A DNA stretch of 23,935 bases, taken from contig JBBSVV010000007.1 in the NCBI GenBank assembly GCA_038046625.1, positions 18,541 to 42,475 of the forward strand, in the 5' to 3' direction. The translations under genes were made by a program, and so were the position numbers. This document shows positions 2,167 to 16,603 of this stretch, piece by piece. The notes under the pieces were generated by a model. The model was not told the origin of the DNA. It saw only the letters and a list, made by a program, of their open reading frames with translations, and ran no database searches. Source of the stretch: an archaeon. GTDB lineage: Archaea > Iainarchaeota > Iainarchaeia > Iainarchaeales > Iainarchaeaceae. Numbering within the stretch: position 1 is the stretch's first letter; every line of letters starts with the position of its first letter.

Positions 2167-2225
2167 TGGCGCGGAGAAGGGGATTCGAACCCCCGCTCCC
2201 GTTAGGGAACACGCTTGCTGCAACC

Positions 2226-2274
2226 TTTTTCTTTTCGTTTGCACGAAAAGAAAAACGTTGGCGAAAAAGAAAAG
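2226..2274 (+). repeat. Triplex-type element copy 2 (in the tRNA-Ser intron)
   Basis: TTTTTCTTTTC-GTTTGCAC-GAAAAGAAAAA-CGTTGGCG-AAAAAGAAAAG; 11/11. Confidence 0.9.
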
Positions 2275-2280
2275 TGCTAT

Positions 2281-2331
2281 TTTCTTTCTTTTCCGCTAAC
2301 GCTTTTCTTTCTCTTGCAAGAGAAAGAAAAG
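2281..2331 (-). repeat. Triplex-type element copy 3 (in the tRNA-Ser intron, inverted relative to copy 2)
   Basis: Minus strand CTTTTCTTTCTCT-TGCA-AGAGAAAGAAAAG-CGTTAGCG-GAAAAGAAAGAAA; mirror match 12/13. Confidence 0.9.
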
Positions 2332-2380
2332 GGTTATTCCAGGCGTGCGCATTGGACCGCTCTGCCATCTCCGCAACACC

Positions 2381-6559: not shown

Positions 6560-8344
6560 TTACTTGGAGACTTTTTCTTCCGGGATGCAGAACGTTCCCC
6601 TGATTTGTTCAACCTTGTCTTTATCTTTTCCGCCGTTCATGCCCGGGCAGGCAAAGTTCCCGGAGTTCACGGAATCAAGCTGCACAAAGCAGCTCGAATT
6701 ATTGTAATCCGCGGGCGCATAGACGAGAGCCATGTAAACAGGTATTTTGCCAGATTCCTTTGTCGAGTAATCATACTCCATTGACGCGAGTGCAGGTGGA
6801 ATTCCCCAGTTTTTGTTATGCAATGGATAGAAACCGTGGCTGGAGTAATTGTCTATGTAGAACTGAATATTGACAAAACCATACGGGTCATCGGCCGATG
6901 CGGCCGTGCAGTTCATGGTAGAAATCCCGTCGGGTTTCCAGCTGAGCCTGTATTCGTTGAACTTCGGGAACTTTTCATTCGGGAAATCCCCGTTCATTGC
7001 ATTTATGGTTGCGCCGGAAGCCTTGAGTGTGCAGTAAGGCACAGCGCACCTGATTATCGAATCAGCGAGCTTCCCCGTTGAATCATAATGGAAGGAAACT
7101 TCCCGCGACTTTTCATCGAAGGTTGCGTCAACTGCCCTAACGATTACTTTGTATGTTCCATCCGAAAAAGAGAACCCAGTTTCAGAGTCAGTTTTGCCTA
7201 TTGTGTATGAATACTTTCCGTTTCCCTCGAAAGTTATTCCGCTGTCCAGCGCAAGGAGCTTTTTGAAAATTCCAGCTTCATTATTTCCTGCGCTGATTGC
7301 CGGCTCGAACTGGCTGCTCGATATGTTGAGCCTGTAAAGGTAAATGTAATAACCGAAATTCGGCTTCTGCTTTATCATCCAATCAATTTTCACTCCTTTG
7401 TTTCCCGTAATTATTCCGTTCTGCAGCGGTGAAACGATTTCAATGAACCTTGAGCCCGGCTGCTCCGTGCACATTTGTATGTTTGCCGCGCTGCTGATTT
7501 TTAATGGGCCGAGCTTTCTCGAGGCATCCGCATCCAGATCAGTGCCCGTTTTGCCGGTGTTTAACTTGCATGACGCCTCGTATGCGCCGCTTAAATCCCC
7601 CTTCACGGAGTAATCAAAGCGCGCATATGTGTTTCCTGAAGTGTCCTCGAAGTAACCCACAAACCTCGAGCCGCTGTTAGTAGGGAAAGTCGCTTCCGAT
7701 TCAACTGAATTCGTGATGTCGCTTATGCCGCACTGTACAGTGGCTTTGCCGTTGCATGTGTCGCTGATTGTGTTTACGTAAAGCAACTTCACGGCCTTTC
7801 CTTTCGGCGCCTGTTCATTGCACGCCTTTATCTCGTAAATGCTTATGTCCACGAATCTTCCCGCTGCGCGCAGAGAATCCGCGTCCAAATCCGTGTCTCC
7901 CTTGAATGCGTTCAGCATGCATCCCAAATCGTAGGTTCCGCTCAATCCTTTGTCCACGTTGATGTCAAACACCGAAGTGAGGCCTCCGGAATCGGTATCA
8001 TGCGCATTCCACACGATTGATTTTGAAGGCAAATTCCTGTAAAGCTCCAAAGAATTGGTTTTTTTGTCAGTTGAACAGGTCACCTTTATCAGGCCGTTGC
8101 ACATGTCAATATCCGCTTTTGCCTCGGTTATTCCCGGGGGCTTGGTGTAATTGTTAGGGGGAATTACGTTGCTGTTTCCGGGGGTGCTTCCATTTCCGTT
8201 CCCGCTTGTGTTGGCAGGAGGCTGTGCCACGGGCTGCGGCGGCGTTGCTCCGTTCCCCTGCTGGTTCGGCTGTGCCTGCTGGGGAGCGGCACAACCCGCA
8301 ACCAAAAGAGCCGCAATAACCAATGTGGCAAAAACAAGTTTCAT
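6560..8344 (-). CDS. Surface lipoprotein with a duplicated Cys-containing domain
   Basis: Lipobox LLVAGC, P/Q/N-rich linker, two ~97-aa repeats each with CNG..V.C, LSG.Y...C.LN, TDLDAD and C.EQ. Confidence 0.85.
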   Translation of the reverse strand: MKLVFATLVIAALLVAGCAAPQQAQPNQQGNGATPPQPVAQPPANTSGNGNGSTPGNSNVIPPNNYTKPPGITEAKADIDMCNGLIKVTCSTDKKTNSLELYRNLPSKSIVWNAHDTDSGGLTSVFDINVDKGLSGTYDLGCMLNAFKGDTDLDADSLRAAGRFVDISIYEIKACNEQAPKGKAVKLLYVNTISDTCNGKATVQCGISDITNSVESEATFPTNSGSRFVGYFEDTSGNTYARFDYSVKGDLSGAYEASCKLNTGKTGTDLDADASRKLGPLKISSAANIQMCTEQPGSRFIEIVSPLQNGIITGNKGVKIDWMIKQKPNFGYYIYLYRLNISSSQFEPAISAGNNEAGIFKKLLALDSGITFEGNGKYSYTIGKTDSETGFSFSDGTYKVIVRAVDATFDEKSREVSFHYDSTGKLADSIIRCAVPYCTLKASGATINAMNGDFPNEKFPKFNEYRLSWKPDGISTMNCTAASADDPYGFVNIQFYIDNYSSHGFYPLHNKNWGIPPALASMEYDYSTKESGKIPVYMALVYAPADYNNSSCFVQLDSVNSGNFACPGMNGGKDKDKVEQIRGTFCIPEEKVSK

Positions 8345-8647: not shown

Positions 8648-9325
8648 ATGAACCAAAAAAAGAACATCGCAATCTGCGTCCCCTCGGGGCGCTTTGTCGA
8701 CTTCAGCTTCTTCAAGTCATACGCGAATACGATAGGGCAACTGATGCTGGCTTACAACACCGTTACCCTTACGGTTGCTTCGCCATTGATTGCGGAGAAC
8801 CGAAACGAAATACTCCGCAAGGCCTTTTCCATTGAGGAAAAAACTCCCGGATTCCTGATTGATTATTTGCTGTGGATTGACAACGACATTTCGTTCTCCT
8901 TTGAGCAGGCCAGGAAACTTTTCTCGCACCTCGAAAGCGGCAAGGATTTCATTTCAGGAACCTACTTCAATCTCGTGGGAGAGGAAATAAAGCCGGTCGC
9001 ATACAAAACAAAGGGCGAGGGCTATGAGTGGCTATCCGAAAAACAATTGTTCGGAACAATGGAAGTTGACTCTGCTGGATTCGGTTTCTGCGCAATGAAA
9101 ATGGATGTTTGCCGAAGAGTTTTCGAAAAATTCAAGCCTCGCCCTTTTGACATGCGCTACCTAGCAAATGGCTCCGTCATTACCGAGGACCAGTTGTTTT
9201 GCGAGCGCGCGAAAGAGCTTGGCTATAAAATATGGCTCGACTCGGAATTGGTTGTGAGGCACGCGAAAGGATTCCTGCCGCCGCAACCTTTTTCTTTCTC
9301 TTACAAAGAGAAAGAAAAACCTTGA
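8648..9325 (+). CDS. GT-A fold (GT2-like) glycosyltransferase
   Basis: IAICVPS, RNEI, LLWIDND (DxD), VDSAGFGF, TEDQLFC, VRH motifs; C-terminus runs into a triplex element. Confidence 0.85.
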   Translation: MNQKKNIAICVPSGRFVDFSFFKSYANTIGQLMLAYNTVTLTVASPLIAENRNEILRKAFSIEEKTPGFLIDYLLWIDNDISFSFEQARKLFSHLESGKDFISGTYFNLVGEEIKPVAYKTKGEGYEWLSEKQLFGTMEVDSAGFGFCAMKMDVCRRVFEKFKPRPFDMRYLANGSVITEDQLFCERAKELGYKIWLDSELVVRHAKGFLPPQPFSFSYKEKEKP

Positions 9326-9341
9326 CGAAAAAGAAAGAGAA
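9289..9341 (+). repeat. Triplex-type element copy 5 (between convergent GT and proA ends)
   Basis: TTTTTCTTTCTCTT-ACA-AAGAGAAAGAAAAA-CCTTGACG-AAAAAGAAAGAGAA; 14/14. Confidence 0.92.
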
Positions 9342-9347
9342 AAAAAA

Positions 9348-10646
9348 TCACTTCAGTTTTTTGTGCAGGAACTTTTTCGCATTTTTTCCTGAATAATCCG
9401 CGACAATGTGCCCATTGCCTTTCAGCAAATACTTGTAGCTTAAAAGCGCTTCAACCCCGCTCGGGCCGCGCGCATGTATTTTCCCAGTTGAAATGCCCAC
9501 TTCCGCGCCCTTTCCATACCTGTAACCGTCTGCAAAGCGCGTTGACGCGTTCCAGTAGACTCCAGCAGAATCAACAGCCTGCAGGAATTTTGCGGCATTC
9601 TTCCTGTCTTCTGTTATTATGCCGTCAGTGTGCTTCGAGCCGAACCTGTTTATGTGTTCGATTGCCTCCTCAACACCCTTCACTGTTTTTATTGAAAGTA
9701 TCAAATCGTTGTACTCCGTTGCCCAGTCTTCTTCACTTGCGTTTTTGGCTTCGAAGCCCGCTTTCCCGAGAATCGCGAGCGCCTTTTCATCGCACCTGAG
9801 TTCCACTTTTCCGGCGAGCGCTTTTGCATACTGCGGCAAAAACTTTTTCGCAATTTTTTCATGCACGAGAAGCGTTTCCATTGCATTGCAGACTGCGGGG
9901 TATTGGCATTTCGCGTCCACGCAGATTTTCACGGCTTTTTTGATGTCCGCCTTTTCATCCACGTACTCGTGGCAGATTCCATCAGAATGCCCAAGCACGG
10001 GAATGCTGGAGTTCTCCTGGATGAACTTCACGAATGCGCTGCTTCCCCTCGGGATAATGAGGTCAATGCGGGAGTTCATTTTGATTAGCTCCTGAACCGC
10101 TTCCCTTGAATCAACAAGCTGCACGGCTTCAAAAGGCAAACCAGTTCCTTTCAGAGCGGCCTGAACGCAATCCAGAAGCGCCCTGTTCGTGTTCAATGCC
10201 TCGCTTCCGCCCTTCAAAATCACGGCGTTTCCCGTCTTGATTGAAAGCGAGCTTATCTGAACAAGCGCATCGGGGCGCGCCTCGAAAACCGCGCAAATTA
10301 CTCCTATAGGAGTTGAGATTTGCTCCAGCTCGAGCCCCTTATCGAGAAGCGTTTTTGAAATAGTTTTCCCCACAGGATCAGGCTGTTTCTTCACCCCTTC
10401 AATCTCATGCAGAATTTCGGAAAACTTTTCCTCCGAGAGAAGCAGCCTTTTCAGGAGCTGTGCTGCAAGATTATTTTTTTTGGCTTCGGCAACATCCTTT
10501 TCGTTTGCGGCAATTATTTTAGCTTTGCTTTTTTTCATTTCCAAAACGATGAGTGCGAGTGCCCTGTCCCTTTCTTTTGCGCTTGAAATGCTCATTGCGA
10601 GAAAAGCCTTTTTTGCGAGAACCGCCTTTTCATTTGCTTCGCTCAT
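9348..10646 (-). CDS. proA: Gamma-glutamyl phosphate reductase
   Basis: PIGVICAVFEARP, LKGGSEA, IIPRGS, CNAMETLLVH, NASTRFADG, EVGISTGKIHARGP. Confidence 0.97.
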   Translation of the reverse strand: MSEANEKAVLAKKAFLAMSISSAKERDRALALIVLEMKKSKAKIIAANEKDVAEAKKNNLAAQLLKRLLLSEEKFSEILHEIEGVKKQPDPVGKTISKTLLDKGLELEQISTPIGVICAVFEARPDALVQISSLSIKTGNAVILKGGSEALNTNRALLDCVQAALKGTGLPFEAVQLVDSREAVQELIKMNSRIDLIIPRGSSAFVKFIQENSSIPVLGHSDGICHEYVDEKADIKKAVKICVDAKCQYPAVCNAMETLLVHEKIAKKFLPQYAKALAGKVELRCDEKALAILGKAGFEAKNASEEDWATEYNDLILSIKTVKGVEEAIEHINRFGSKHTDGIITEDRKNAAKFLQAVDSAGVYWNASTRFADGYRYGKGAEVGISTGKIHARGPSGVEALLSYKYLLKGNGHIVADYSGKNAKKFLHKKLK

Positions 10647-12227: not shown

Positions 12228-12410
12228 ATATCAAAGGACAAAAATATGGATACAAAATTTGTCCTTTGATATAGCAGACCACGAAAGTTTTTCGGCATTT
12301 ATGGTGGTCTGCTAGATAGCAGACCAAAAATGTCGCCGAAATATTTTATTGGTCTGCTATAGCTATCAAAAGACATTTAAAAAAGTTTCAGAATTAATGT
12401 CTTTTGATAT
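12228..12410. repeat. A-B-B-A array of four ~45-bp palindromic units
   Basis: Arms ATATCAAAGGACAAA (15 bp), TAGCAGACCAC (11), ATAGCAGACCAA (12) and TATCAAAAGACATT (14), each with a perfect inverted partner. Confidence 0.9.
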
Positions 12411-13549: not shown

Positions 13550-13678
13550 ATGAGTTTTTCTATTCAATCCCCAAATAGGGGTGAAATAGTCAGAGCCATT
13601 GAGGCTATCGAGAATGGCGAGGAGCTTACCGACAGGGAGCTCTGGATTCTGGAAGGGCTAGGGGGCGATTTTGAATGA
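13550..13678 (+). CDS. Small hypothetical protein (42 aa)
   Basis: GGAGGTGG SD; MSFSIQSPNRGEIVRAIEAIENGEELTDRELWILEGLGGDFE; ATGA overlap with the next ORF. Confidence 0.6.
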   Translation: MSFSIQSPNRGEIVRAIEAIENGEELTDRELWILEGLGGDFE

Positions 13679-13827
13679 GTCGCTCCGTTTTCCTTTTCAT
13701 TTTCCTATTTTGCATTGCTCCGTTGTTCTGGCTTTATGTCCTCACAGGGAAAGAGTGGCTTTTGGATTTGGCGATGCATGCCCTTTCCTTTTTCTTCGGC
13801 TTTTCTTTTGCGGAGGCGATTCAATGA
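13675..13827 (+). CDS. Small membrane protein (50 aa)
   Basis: MSRSVFLFIFLFCIAPLFWLYVLTGKEWLLDLAMHALSFFFGFSFAEAIQ; ATGA overlaps at both ends. Confidence 0.55.
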   Translation: MSRSVFLFIFLFCIAPLFWLYVLTGKEWLLDLAMHALSFFFGFSFAEAIQ

Positions 13828-14819
13828 CCGCACCGGCAATGTACCCTTCCAATAACTCTTTGATAAAGGTCAATGAACATCTATCCATGCGATTTAATCT
13901 CTTTGATTTGCACGATTCGGCCGAAGACATTAATGTAAGGCGTTTGATAAGGGTTTACTCCGTTGTGCCAAAATACTCACAATTCAAGTCTGGGCCTTGG
14001 GCGGGGCAGGCTATCAGAGTTACTTCATTTCTTAGAAAGGTGAATGAGAAGCTTAAGAAAGAAATCGGCTCAGGATGGAAAAGAGAATGGCTGAATAACA
14101 TCGGCTATAAGTTTGCCCTGAAAAGTATTGGCGATTGGTTTATTGGGAGGGCTTCGGTTCCTTTAATAGCTTTAAAGAAGCTGGAAGTATTTGGTTTGGA
14201 CTGTGAAGTAAGTGTGCTTCTTAACAATTGTAATTATTTTTCTTGTACCACAAGAGCCCCTTATAAATTGCCGCATTTTTTGACTCCTGATTTGGCATAT
14301 CTAACAGGTGCTATACTTGGTGATGGTCACATAAGAAGGACTGAAGATAAAATTTCCTTTGAGGTTTCCGAAAAATGGCTTTCGAATAAGTTTATTGAAA
14401 AAGTTGTAGCTGTTTTTGAACAAAAATTAAGAGAAAGTATTCGCATAGGCCGTGGGAAAGATAAATATTTGGCGAGGTTTGACAATAAATCAGCTAAAAG
14501 ATTGTTCACAAAAATAATTGGAATCCCTTCCGGAAAAAAGTCGCATATTATCACGGTCCCTGAATTGATAAAAGCGTCTTCAAAAGAATGTCAAACCGCT
14601 TTTCTTGAAGGGGTATTTGACACAGATGGTGGGAGCAGAGGCAAGAACCGCCTAGGTTTAACGAGTGCCTCGAAACAGTTCAGGGACGGCATAATTGATT
14701 TACTTGAAGTGCAAGGTATCAATGCTTTTAAGGATGAGTGGGTAAATAAAATGTATAACCGGTCTTACTACGGATTAAGGCTCTCAAAAGGAGTGAAGCC
14801 AAGCTTTATGCAGGAGTAG
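13824..14819 (+). CDS. Free-standing two-motif LAGLIDADG endonuclease-like protein
   Basis: LAYLTGAILGDGHI and AFLEGVFDTDGG motifs; probable start MTAP at 13824 (GGAGG SD); no intein termini; stop TAG lies inside tRNA-Leu. Confidence 0.88.
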   Translation: MTAPAMYPSNNSLIKVNEHLSMRFNLFDLHDSAEDINVRRLIRVYSVVPKYSQFKSGPWAGQAIRVTSFLRKVNEKLKKEIGSGWKREWLNNIGYKFALKSIGDWFIGRASVPLIALKKLEVFGLDCEVSVLLNNCNYFSCTTRAPYKLPHFLTPDLAYLTGAILGDGHIRRTEDKISFEVSEKWLSNKFIEKVVAVFEQKLRESIRIGRGKDKYLARFDNKSAKRLFTKIIGIPSGKKSHIITVPELIKASSKECQTAFLEGVFDTDGGSRGKNRLGLTSASKQFRDGIIDLLEVQGINAFKDEWVNKMYNRSYYGLRLSKGVKPSFMQE

Positions 14820-14893
14820 CGAAGCGGTCAAACGTGCACGGTTTAGGGCCGTGTGGCTTAGTGCCTTCGGAGGTTCGAATCCTCCCTCCTGCA
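14810..14893 (+). tRNA. tRNA-Leu(TAG)
   Basis: GCAGGAG/CTCCTGC-A acceptor, CACGG-TT-TAG-GG-CCGTG anticodon arm, long variable arm, GTTCGAATC T loop. Confidence 0.95.
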
Positions 14894-14898
14894 TAACC

Positions 14899-14951
14899 TT
14901 TTTTCTTTCTCGTTGGAATAGAAAGAAAAAATGTTAACGAAAAAAGAAAGA
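14899..14951 (+). repeat. Triplex-type element copy 6 (tRNA-Leu 3' trailer)
   Basis: TTTTTTCTTTCT-CGTTGGAAT-AGAAAGAAAAAA-TGTTAACG-AAAAAAGAAAGA; 12/12. Confidence 0.9.
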
Positions 14952-15012
14952 GAAAAAGAACCCTGTCCCGTACGGGGCGAGGAAGCATTAAGGGAAAAGA
15001 AAAGTGTATTAT

Positions 15013-15114
15013 TTACATCATGTCTTTGCCTTTCCACGCCCACTTCCCGGATCCGTCAACTTTCATATGTTTCTTGTTTGCATTCTTTGCGTCTTTGTTT
15101 CCCATGCCGAACAT
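15013..15114 (-). CDS. Small basic protein (33 aa)
   Basis: MFGMGNKDAKNANKKHMKVDGSGKWAWKGKDMM; GGGGTGA SD and CCGAAAAAAAGTATTAAAA promoter-like motif upstream. Confidence 0.5.
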   Translation of the reverse strand: MFGMGNKDAKNANKKHMKVDGSGKWAWKGKDMM

Positions 15115-15176
15115 TATTTCACCCCTGTATAAGTAATTCGCCATAGCCGGCTTTTAATACTTTTTTTCGGCAAAAT

Positions 15177-15297
15177 CGCTCCTGCTGGGATTCGAACCCA
15201 GGTCAAGGGCTCGTTCCAACCATTTTTGGTCAAGCTTTTTTGCCTGCAAAAAAGGTTGCCGGAAGCCCTTATGCTATCCGGGCTACACCACAGGAGC
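15177..15297 (-). tRNA. tRNA-Arg(CCG) with a 47-nt intron at 37/38 (15212-15258)
   Basis: GCTCCTG/CAGGAGC-G acceptor; AGGGC-TT-CCG-G|A-GCCCT; perfect BHB (TTCC/GGAA central helix, AACC/GGTT outer helix). Confidence 0.94.
15223..15253 (-). repeat. Miniature triplex-type element copy 7 (in the tRNA-Arg intron)
   Basis: Minus strand AACC-TTTTTT-GCAGGC-AAAAAA-GCTTGACC-AAAAA; same AACC start and 8-nt linker as the longer copies. Confidence 0.75.
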
Positions 15298-15303
15298 AAC
15301 ACC

Positions 15304-15354
15304 TTTTTTCTTTTCTTGGCAGAAAAGAAAAAAGCTGTACCAAAAAAAGAAAAG
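15304..15354 (+). repeat. Triplex-type element copy 8 (abuts the tRNA-Arg(CCG) 5' end)
   Basis: TTTTTTCTTTTCT-TGGC-AGAAAAGAAAAAA-GCTGTACC-(A)AAAAAAGAAAAG. Confidence 0.88.
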
Positions 15355-15438
15355 GGCAAAGAATTGAAAAGCACGCTGGAAGCGTGCCAAGGCCCTGCGA
15401 AGCAGGGGCTGTCGTTCCCGCCGGGCGAAACCGGCGAG

Positions 15439-15510
15439 CGCTCCCACAGGGAATCGAACCCTGATCGTCAGCTCCGCAAGCTGAAATCCTATCCGTTAGA
15501 CGATGGGAGC
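15439..15510 (-). tRNA. tRNA-Arg(GCG)
   Basis: GCTCCCA/TGGGAGC-G acceptor, TCAGC-TT-GCG-GA-GCTGA anticodon arm, GTTCGATTC T loop. Confidence 0.95.
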
Positions 15511-15515
15511 ACACC

Positions 15516-15560
15516 TTTTCTTTTTGTTTGGCCAAAAGAAAAGCTGTACCAAAAGAAAAA
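15516..15560 (+). repeat. Triplex-type element copy 9 (abuts the tRNA-Arg(GCG) 5' end)
   Basis: TTTTCTTTTT-GTTTGGCC-AAAAGAAAA-GCTGTACC-AAAAGAAAAA; 9 triads. Confidence 0.85.
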
Positions 15561-15584
15561 GCCTTGAAAAGAGTTTAAAACCGC

Positions 15585-15690
15585 TTCTCTTTCTTTTTGA
15601 TCACCTTGCAAAGCTTGGCTTTGCGAGGCCTCGCAGAACTTGGGTTCTGCAAAGGACCTTTTTACTTTCTCTTCGCAAGAGAAAGAAAAA
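15585..15690 (-). repeat. Triplex-type element copy 10 with a structured insert in the linker (3' of map)
   Basis: Minus strand TTTTTCTTTCTCTT-GCG-AAGAGAAAG(T)AAAAA-[60 nt]-AAAAAGAAAGAGAA. Confidence 0.8.
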
Positions 15691-15697
15691 GGTTGTT

Positions 15698-16603
15698 TTA
15701 AAGCAAACGAATGACCTTGCCTTCGTGGGCCAAAAGCGTGGTTTCGGCCTGGCAAACGGTTTTCCCTTCCTCTTCCTTCAGCAAAGGAAACGCCATTATG
15801 CACTTCTTCTGCATGAGTTCCCGCATGCCTATTTTGCGCGCAAAATCACTCATTTTCAGGTTCCTTTGCAGCCAGCGCTCCGCAAACGGGAGTTTCGAGT
15901 AATTATCTTCGACAAAAGCAAGTATTTTGCGCGCCTCCATTCCCCGCACCGGAACCTTTTCCGCAACCTGGAAAATCTCGGCCTGCGAGCCTTCCCTTAC
16001 AAAACCTTCGCCGTCGGTTGCAAAAGGCTCAATCGCAATAGCCATTCCTTCCTCTATTTCCCTTGAATCATTGTTCGCAATGTTCGGAATCGAAGGGCCG
16101 ACATGCGCATCGTATTCAGAAACCCCGTGGCCGCTTAAATTCTGTATCGGCCTGAAGCCCTTTGCCCGCAAAGTGCTCTCGATTTTTTTTCCAAGCGCGC
16201 CGACAGAGACACCTTCCTTAAACATTTTCACGGCCTCTTCAAGGGCCTGCTCCGTTGTTTCAACCATTTCCTTGTGCTTTCCTGAAAAATCAATTGTGAA
16301 AGCCGAATCCGCGATGAAGCCGTTCACATGAACGCCAATGTCAACCTTAATCACTGCGCCTTCGAGAAGAACATCTGCCGATTCGAACGAAGGTGTGTAA
16401 TGCGCGGCAACATTATTCATTGAAAGGTTTATCGGGAATGCCGGGGCGCCGCCCTTTTTCCTGATTTCTGATTCAATGTGCTCCGCAAACTCGTAAAGGT
16501 TCGCGCCTTCCTTGAGTTTTTTTGCCGAGAACTCCTGCATTTCCTTTGTGATTTCGCCGGCTTTCCTGTAATTCTCCACAGTCTTTTTGTCCATGAAATT
16601 CAC
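15698..16603 (-). CDS. map: Methionine aminopeptidase type II
   Basis: AFPINLSMNNVAAHYTP, KVDIGVHVNGFIADSAFT, NLSGHG, AIEPFAT, QAETT; start may be MDKK at 16594. Confidence 0.96.
   Translation of the reverse strand: MNFMDKKTVENYRKAGEITKEMQEFSAKKLKEGANLYEFAEHIESEIRKKGGAPAFPINLSMNNVAAHYTPSFESADVLLEGAVIKVDIGVHVNGFIADSAFTIDFSGKHKEMVETTEQALEEAVKMFKEGVSVGALGKKIESTLRAKGFRPIQNLSGHGVSEYDAHVGPSIPNIANNDSREIEEGMAIAIEPFATDGEGFVREGSQAEIFQVAEKVPVRGMEARKILAFVEDNYSKLPFAERWLQRNLKMSDFARKIGMRELMQKKCIMAFPLLKEEEGKTVCQAETTLLAHEGKVIRLL

Follow-up and report, generated by a model that had tools for sequence, protein, structure and literature searches.

How introns arrive in archaeal tRNA genes is an open question. 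We address it here for the tRNA-Arg(CCG) gene of a small archaeal genome, a case that traces the body of a canonical intron to a genomic repeat family and raises the question of whether sequence has passed between intron and intergenic positions. The gene lies within a 23,935-nt stretch of DNA (the window) that belongs to genome G000, an assembly of 986 kb in 57 contigs. The host is a DPANN archaeon of the Iainarchaeum group, a tiny organism from groundwater, because its family-B DNA polymerase (PolB) shares 94% identity with the enzyme of Candidatus Iainarchaeum andersonii SCGC AAA011-E11.

The gene was defined by covariance-model alignment. RF00005 matched it with 45.7 bits along the whole model (positions 1-71), and the anticodon loop carried an insertion of 51 nt. 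ARAGORN missed the gene in its default run, and with introns allowed it reported Arg(ccg) with a 47-nt intron. Excision of this intron restores a cloverleaf tRNA-Arg(CCG), the alignment placing the insertion between positions 37 and 38. The gene is composed as follows, with arrows marking the splice sites.

15177..15297, minus strand: tRNA-Arg(CCG) gene including its intron, identified by RF00005 and ARAGORN -i; exons align collinearly with the sister genome's intronless orthologue
15259..15297, minus strand: 5' exon, tRNA positions 1-37, from covariance-model alignment and helix write-out
15212..15258, minus strand: 47-nt canonical intron at site 37/38, with splice sites in the 3-nt bulges GG↓C and CG↓A
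15177..15211, minus strand: 3' exon, tRNA positions 38-73, from covariance-model alignment and helix write-out

The initial annotation had placed an intron with a perfect BHB at this position, and its coordinates proved exact. The splicing motif begins with the 5-bp anticodon stem, followed by a 3-nt bulge (CG↓A), a 4-bp central helix (UUCC/GGAA), a second 3-nt bulge (GG↓C) and a 4-bp outer helix (AACC/GGUU). All 13 pairs in the three helices are Watson-Crick, and the motif is a strict helix-bulge-helix-bulge-helix (hBHBh') at the canonical 37/38 site. Minimisation of the folding energy of the pre-tRNA gave a rod of -55 kcal/mol, and the cloverleaf with splicing motif reached -45.5 kcal/mol when enforced; that energy minimisation does not favour the cloverleaf is usual for tRNAs. 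In the enforced-cloverleaf fold, U5 was paired with A5 within the intron. By eye, the intron contained no C/D-box guide RNA motifs, and no target-site duplication was seen at its borders, the junctions reading ...TTCCGG↓C... and ...ACG↓AGCC.... None of the contigs from four DNA runs over 14700-15800, a region of patchy cover, joined across the intron. Judged from its sequence, the intron is probably spliced in vivo.

A potential concern is whether the host carries the machinery for removal of such an intron. The gene for the EndA splicing endonuclease (PF01974) is present in G000 at C4:8542-8802, with a score of 90.3 bits against a cut-off of 27. No match to the ligase RtcB (PF01139) was found in G000, an 84.6%-complete genome with at least 10 predicted tRNA introns. 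RtcB is present in all five of the relatives searched, and in the sister genome it is split in two pieces at contig ends. Its absence from G000 is likely an assembly gap.

We examined the repeat family of the host genome by a genome scan for hairpins with a pyrimidine 5' arm, a purine 3' arm and a stem of at least 9 bp. The scan returned 50 such hairpins, 34 of which are followed by a linker of 6-9 nt and then by a second purine run that mirrors the first. Across all 50 hairpins, without selection, the mirror match within a hairpin's own copy was 0.715, compared to 0.59±0.014 for permuted copies, a value reached in none of 5000 permutations; a direct-repeat control barely departed from the permutation level. 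The mirror relation is specific to each copy. By the definitions of Holder et al. 2015 (PMC4666352), the design is that of a class II intrastrand triplex motif. The linker motif is also enriched in several other families of the order (for example, 41 vs 6 in G121).

The copies are concentrated around tRNA genes, 21 of the 50 hairpins lying inside them or within 40 nt. Upstream copies are found at 7 of 34 tRNAs with a spacing of 3-6 nt, and downstream copies at ten tRNAs, where the distance to the gene end is 3-9 nt in nine cases and 36 nt in the tenth. The hairpin points towards the gene and the third strand away from it in all seven upstream copies and in all five triplex-type copies located 3-6 nt downstream; copies within introns likewise have the hairpin beside the exon. 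The module occurs in 5 of the 10 ARAGORN-predicted introns of G000 (Tyr, Ser-GGA, Arg-CCG, Ser-TGA and Pro-CGG). What these five introns of different tRNAs have in common is the module design and short stretches of sequence, not the whole intron. Three loci of the window with full-size copies serve for comparison with the Arg intron.

2168..2374, minus strand: tRNA-Ser(GGA), with an intron of two inverted full-size copies closed by AACC...GGTT (the ARAGORN label Ala-ggc is wrong)
9284..9345, plus strand: intergenic full-size copy with linker CCTTGACG at 9320-9327 and a mirror third strand matching at 14/14 positions
15298..15352, plus strand: full-size copy directly upstream of tRNA-Arg(CCG), hairpin beside the gene; absent from the sister genome

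Several further observations concern copies of the repeat and the sequence around them. Sub-threshold Rfam matches at 2221-2336 and 9290-9350 (plant microRNA families, yeast telomerase RNA) were rejected as artefacts of repeat composition. At about 11100-11170 of contig C7, the copy 36 nt downstream of tRNA-Thr(TGT) is followed by an apparent duplicate of the tRNA 3' end (GGATCTCGCCGAGGGCT), an arrangement that resembles an integration scar. A contig from DNA run X6 (depth 5) differs behind tRNA-Leu(TAG), at window 14903-14983, where it has a 22-nt plain hairpin in place of 79 nt of the copy; because that contig carries the replacement, this copy is variable in natural populations. The same tRNA gene (14809-14894, plus strand) is overlapped at its 5' end by about 10 nt of a LAGLIDADG_3 open reading frame of 382 aa (13671-14819, plus strand). 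Elsewhere in the window, at 12270-12361, TAGCAGACC motifs form an imperfect palindrome with 45-nt arms that are 76% complementary and a 2-nt spacer; related sequence is found in the sister genome at L001 10205-10262.

The interior of the tRNA-Arg(CCG) intron reads, in order, AACC, T6, GCAGGC, A6, GCTTGACC and A5, then T-GGTT-GGAACG, in agreement with the interior that had been described for it. Its parts are listed here from the 5' end of the intron.

15254..15257, minus strand: AACC, repeat 5' flank and 5' strand of the outer helix, pairing with GGTT at 15218-15221
15248..15253, minus strand: T6, shortened pyrimidine arm, from the sequence and alignment to copies
15242..15247, minus strand: GCAGGC, hairpin loop of the mini copy, from the sequence
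15236..15241, minus strand: A6, shortened purine arm, from the sequence and alignment to copies
15228..15235, minus strand: 8-nt linker GCTTGACC, which with its flanks is 19/19 identical to C21 7021-7039
15223..15227, minus strand: A5, occupying the position of the mirror third strand, from the sequence
15218..15221, minus strand: GGTT, 3' strand of the outer helix, pairing with AACC at 15254-15257
15212..15217, minus strand: GGAA and CG, the tRNA-specific tail, GGAA pairing with nt 32-35 (UUCC) and CG forming the 3' bulge with exon nucleotide A38

Only the last 6 nt of the intron are specific to tRNA-Arg(CCG). When the intron was compared with the whole genome by BLAST, its best match other than itself was the 19/19 identity over A6-linker-A5 (E 1e-4). 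The same full-size copy, C21 6993-7039, which lies just upstream of tRNA-Ser(TGA), is also identical to the intron at 11/11 collinear positions over CAACC-T6. CAACC followed by a T-run also opens full-size copies, for example those at C21 6993, C3 5855, C3 7972 and C6 1327. A gapped local alignment placed 35 of the first 36 nt of the intron on the C21 copy with two gaps, both within the hairpin. The alignment score was 49.5. In 1000 shuffles of the intron that preserved its dinucleotides, aligned to the same set of 30 non-intron copies of G000, the score was 24.1±3.6 (maximum 39.25), and none of them reached the observed value. Three control introns (tRNA-Glu, tRNA-Leu and tRNA-Met) did not exceed their own shuffles in the same test. 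The A4-linker-A4 motif occurs 36 times in G000 and 0-1 times in each of 20 block shuffles, an enrichment of about 200-fold. The specific form A4-GCTTGACC-A4 with near variants gave 35 matches in 17 of the 23 genomes of the host's family, with none for reversed-pattern controls.

The Arg copy exhibits the traits specific to the family, namely the 5' flank (C)AACC, the C.C mismatch at the hairpin base and an 8-nt linker of consensus type, and it has the strand order of pyrimidine arm, loop, purine arm, linker and purine third strand. It is unlike the other copies only in its very short 6-bp A/T hairpin. The stem of 6 nt is below the 8-nt chance threshold stated in PMC4666352, whereas full-size copies have 10-16 nt, and the copy is too short and too homopolymeric to count alone as a triplex motif. 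Note that mirror symmetry tells nothing about this copy, as its two purine runs consist of A alone. Furthermore, folding of A5 back along the hairpin and formation of the AACC/GGUU helix would be mutually exclusive in the mini copy, because one nucleotide separates A5 from GGUU. A pattern for an abundant 'mini' subfamily (T5G-N3-10-A4-linker-A4) was tried and rejected, since it gave six matches in 4 of the 23 family genomes and five of these had served to write the pattern.

It had been proposed that the Arg intron body shares its origin with the Ser intron and with the intergenic copies, and the collinear identity of flank, runs and linker, together with the occurrence of the design in 5/10 introns, supports this well. 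The individual resemblances on which the proposal was built also hold: the tRNA-Ser(GGA) intron is closed by AACC...GGTT in the same manner, and the Arg linker agrees with the intergenic linker CCTTGACG at 6/8 positions. The 19-nt identity to a copy in the same genome could reflect recent exchange instead of conservation, but the linker is the family-wide consensus.

We also examined the orthologous genes of relatives. The gene covariance model was run on all 23 family genomes and identified tRNA-Arg(CCG) in 12 of them; in the other 11 the best matches were other tRNAs. An intron at 37/38 is present in 10 of the 12 genomes, with lengths of 23-186 nt.

G005: intron of 23 nt, short stub
G004: intron of 41 nt, mini
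G000 (host genome): intron of 47 nt, mini
G022: intron of 47 nt, degenerate
G014: intron of 49 nt, mini
G018: intron of 103 nt, one copy and other sequence
G015: intron of 140 nt, two inverted full-size copies
G012: intron of 142 nt, two inverted full-size copies
G021: intron of 148 nt, two inverted full-size copies
G019: intron of 186 nt, two copies and an insert
G001 and G008: no intron in tRNA-Arg(CCG)

In most of the ten introns, A(A/G)CC and a T-run make up the 5' end, and an A-run precedes GGTT (GCTT in G019) and GG(G)AA at the 3' end; the G005 stub, the G004 mini form and G015 are exceptions. The stretch from the A-run through GGTT-GG(G)AA is common to the introns of G000, G014, G012, G021 and G022. 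Loops related to GCAGGC are found in G014 (GCATGGC) and G004 (GGAGGC). The gene of G014, a member of another genus, is syntenic with that of G000 (PolB, Arg-GCG, Arg-CCG, Leu-TAG), and its 49-nt intron is identical to the G000 intron at 38 of 51 aligned columns, loop included; for the G004 intron the figure is 33 of 47. An identical intron in a relative lacking the repeat would have spoken for chance similarity, and G014, with its look-alike intron, carries the repeat family (four motif matches vs one control, with typical linkers). Introns of the same design are not confined to this gene. The tRNA-Arg(GCG) gene, intronless in G000, has 37/38 introns of this kind in G020, G002, G010, G003 and G013 (L079-L082, L077), where the tail is GCAA and matches the gene's own anticodon loop UUGC, and 37/38 introns of the same design are found in Gly, Pro and Trp tRNAs of other family members.

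The sister genome, G001, has a PolB 94-95% identical to that of G000, and its syntenic tRNA-Arg(CCG) is intronless. The spacer between tRNA-Arg(CCG) and tRNA-Arg(GCG) is 16 nt in the sister and 140 nt in G000, and the upstream full-size copy is absent as well. In the window, the region between the tRNA-Arg genes at 15353-15437 contains three short G+C-rich hairpins, then an A/T-rich box, then the full-size copy, and the whole block of about 125 nt is missing from the sister, where 16 nt separate the genes. The introns of tRNA-Pro(CGG) and tRNA-Ser(TGA) in G000 are also absent from the sister, and those of tRNA-Ser(GGA) and tRNA-Tyr contain different repeat copies in the two genomes. These data indicate that the turnover of introns and repeats between G000 and its sister is fast. 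A separate difference was observed behind tRNA-Leu(TAG), where the sister has three tandem units of about 31 nt (L001 9835-9930), each with a pyrimidine run and linker-like CGTTAAC/CACTAAC, and G000 has one complete copy.

The proposal that intron gain would track repeat abundance was not borne out in this one close pair, the sister having 29 linker motifs vs 36 in G000 (reversed-pattern controls, 5 and 4) and lacking three introns. We also considered, as a possible proof of recent traffic, an intergenic look-alike in G000 at C39 ~7120-7170. It is conserved at the orthologous sister site, which is 97% identical over 1 kb and has a deletion of 6 nt, and a comparable copy in G007 is flanked by unrelated genes.

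We used a quick PolB tree to examine the order of events. G000 and G001 are nested with G004 and the G012 group (SH-aLRT 98), with G014 outside. On this single-gene tree, in which one node is unresolved and the G014 row is only 30% filled, intron presence and absence require two changes, whereas a gain-only history requires about seven gains by hand count. The mini forms (G000, G004, G014) are interleaved with the two-copy forms (G012, G015, G021, G019), so that the tree demands several reductions or replacements of the interior; plain vertical inheritance with a single reduction does not fit it. In tRNA-Tyr, the exons are the same in G007 and G020, but the hairpin interior of the intron is 15 nt shorter in G020, and this pair provides a direct precedent for intron shrinkage. 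The PolB genes of G002 (C61) and G014 (C31) are themselves interrupted, with open frames of 1253 and 790 aa and the PolB match in two blocks, and look intein-like.

We consider it likely that the tRNA-Arg(CCG) intron is an ordinary intron spliced by EndA, that its body is a dispensable, decaying copy of the repeat, and that the termini of the repeat give the closing helix. The pre-tRNA would fold into the helix-bulge-helix-bulge-helix motif, EndA would cleave within both 3-nt bulges, and the exons would be joined by a ligase, which in relatives is RtcB. The intron body would be a copy, reduced in size, of the Iainarchaeales triplex-type hairpin repeat, with the repeat terminus AACC and its inverted counterpart GGTT forming the outer helix of the splicing motif, and the dispensable interior would shrink, swell or be swapped over time. 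The intron itself would be old in the family, reduced to a 6-bp A/T hairpin in the G000 lineage, lost precisely in the sister and lost in G008. That the intron can be dispensed with is supported by the intronless genes of G001 and G008. Comparison among the relatives suggests, in keeping with this reading, the polarity of events (old intron, loss in the sister, reduction from full to mini) and a body without a function of its own. One feature that speaks against this explanation is that the sister also lacks the upstream full-size copy, such that a two-part gain in G000 at one locus could account for the difference.

The first alternative is a recent gain, according to which a mini or full copy inserted into an intronless tRNA-Arg(CCG) after the split from the sister, with traffic from intergenic position to intron. 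We consider this unlikely, although several observations are in its favour: the closely related sister has an intronless syntenic gene and an empty upstream site, the linker with its flanks is matched 19/19 within the same genome, and the tRNA-Ser(TGA) intron of G000 is absent from both G001 and G015, from which it follows that intron gains may occur. The homologous mini-intron in the syntenic gene of G014, a different genus, and the same-ended introns at this site in 10/12 family genomes stand against it, as do the roughly seven independent gains vs two losses on the PolB tree and the lack of a target-site duplication where the intron meets the exons. We regard a fresh insertion as improbable; because of the G014 homologue and the same ends in 10/12 genomes, the intron is likelier to be old and to have been lost in the sister. 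The traffic that the initial annotation proposed is thus supported in one respect, as the missing intron of the syntenic sister gene means that something moved, and not in the other, as the G014 mini-intron and the shared ends argue against a recent arrival. Any traffic between intron and intergenic positions may have run in either direction.

A more speculative arrangement, which we regard as rather doubtful, would extend the pattern around tRNA genes to a general rule: repeat copies would flank every tRNA exon on both sides (in the leader, at either end of the intron and in the trailer) with the hairpin to the exon, facing copies would pair to present the exons to the endonuclease, and the 47-nt Arg intron would be the minimal working form. 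If this held, introns could arise at the DNA level from copies whose termini give the closing helix, and a break between facing copies would result in split tRNA genes as in other DPANN archaea.

It is improbable, in our judgement, that the intron body is a working part of the RNA or DNA, such as a handle that holds the exons, a triplex or protein site that protects or times the pre-tRNA, or a U6 signal for pausing or termination. A role of this kind would agree with the confinement of the repeat to discarded pre-tRNA parts (leader, trailer and intron) with the hairpin beside the exon, a rule obeyed by 7/7 upstream copies, by 5/5 triplex-type copies 3-6 nt downstream and by the intron copies; with the mirror covariation, which points to selection on three-strand pairing; and with the occurrence of the mini form with a similar loop in three genera. 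Against it, the gene works intron-free in G001 and G008, and the orthologous introns range from 23 to 186 nt with differing interiors. A 6-bp A/T stem with A5 as third strand also has a length that is common in scrambled genomes according to Holder et al. 2015 (PMC4666352). In addition, the closing helix and the A5 fold-back would be incompatible in the mini form.

A chance or convergent resemblance, in which an intron whose sole requirement is a closing helix readily acquires a GC-rich spacer and short runs of A or T, is very improbable: the homopolymer runs are of just 5-6 nt, leaving mirror symmetry without weight, and the C39 look-alike, conserved in the sister, need not be a repeat copy, but the alignment score was reached by 0/1000 shuffles, the control introns were negative against their own shuffles, the linker motif is some 200-fold enriched over shuffles, and flank, both runs and linker stand in family order.

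The preferred reading of an old, spliceable intron with a decaying repeat body has the consequence that the repeat's own ends make the helix that renders the Arg intron spliceable. One orthologous site within one family is found empty, with a 23-nt stub, with a mini copy, with one copy or with two inverted copies, providing a testable series for intron birth, decay and loss, and a possible stepping stone to split tRNA genes. Within the full texts searched, which included few subscription journals, we found no literature on triplex-type repeats linked to tRNA introns, on this repeat or on tRNA introns of Iainarchaeum. New here are the orthologous series at one intron site, the differences between the sister genomes and the statistics that connect the mini copy with the repeat family.

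The intron is similar to canonical archaeal BHB introns in its 37/38 position, its strict hBHBh' geometry, its pairing with nt 32-35 and the presence of EndA in the host. It differs from them in that its body is a member of a dispersed repeat and its outer helix is made from the termini of that repeat. According to the review by Yoshihisa (2014; PMC4090602), tRNA introns otherwise need no conserved sequence. A parallel is found in the transposed introns of Thermoproteales (Fujishima et al. 2010, Mol Biol Evol 27:2233, as summarized in PMC4090602), where similar introns occur across tRNA identities and differ between close relatives; spread at the DNA level is suspected there, by a mechanism given as unknown. 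The two systems are alike in having similar intron sequences in differing tRNAs of one genome, which in G000 concerns the module design and short stretches, and in turnover between close relatives. The present system belongs to the Iainarchaeales lineage, every case observed occupies the canonical site, and the module also occurs in tRNA leaders, tRNA trailers and gene ends. Unlike the Thermoproteales introns as summarized, the G000 module is a hairpin with a mirror strand and changes size within one orthologous intron.

In its design the repeat resembles the class II intrastrand triplex motifs of bacteria (PIT/BoxC/TMECO), which, according to Holder et al. 2015 (PMC4666352), are dispersed conserved repeats with a pyrimidine arm, a purine arm and a mirroring purine third strand on one strand. 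Compared with these motifs, the G000 repeat is archaeal, has A/T-rich in place of G/C-rich sequence, and keeps a fixed orientation to the tRNA exons with which it is associated.

The repeat is also similar to MITEs and other small non-autonomous repeats of prokaryotes, being short, structured, dispersed and variable in presence between close relatives. AACC and GGTT are inverted ends, but, unlike in MITEs, no direct repeat flanks the Arg intron, there is no linked transposase, and the insertion sites are discarded parts of pre-tRNAs. In the split tRNA genes of Nanoarchaeum, complementary leader and trailer sequences beside the exon ends unite the exons in a motif that EndA can cleave. The tRNA-Arg(CCG) gene, in contrast, is continuous, and its complementary parts are the two ends of one intron.
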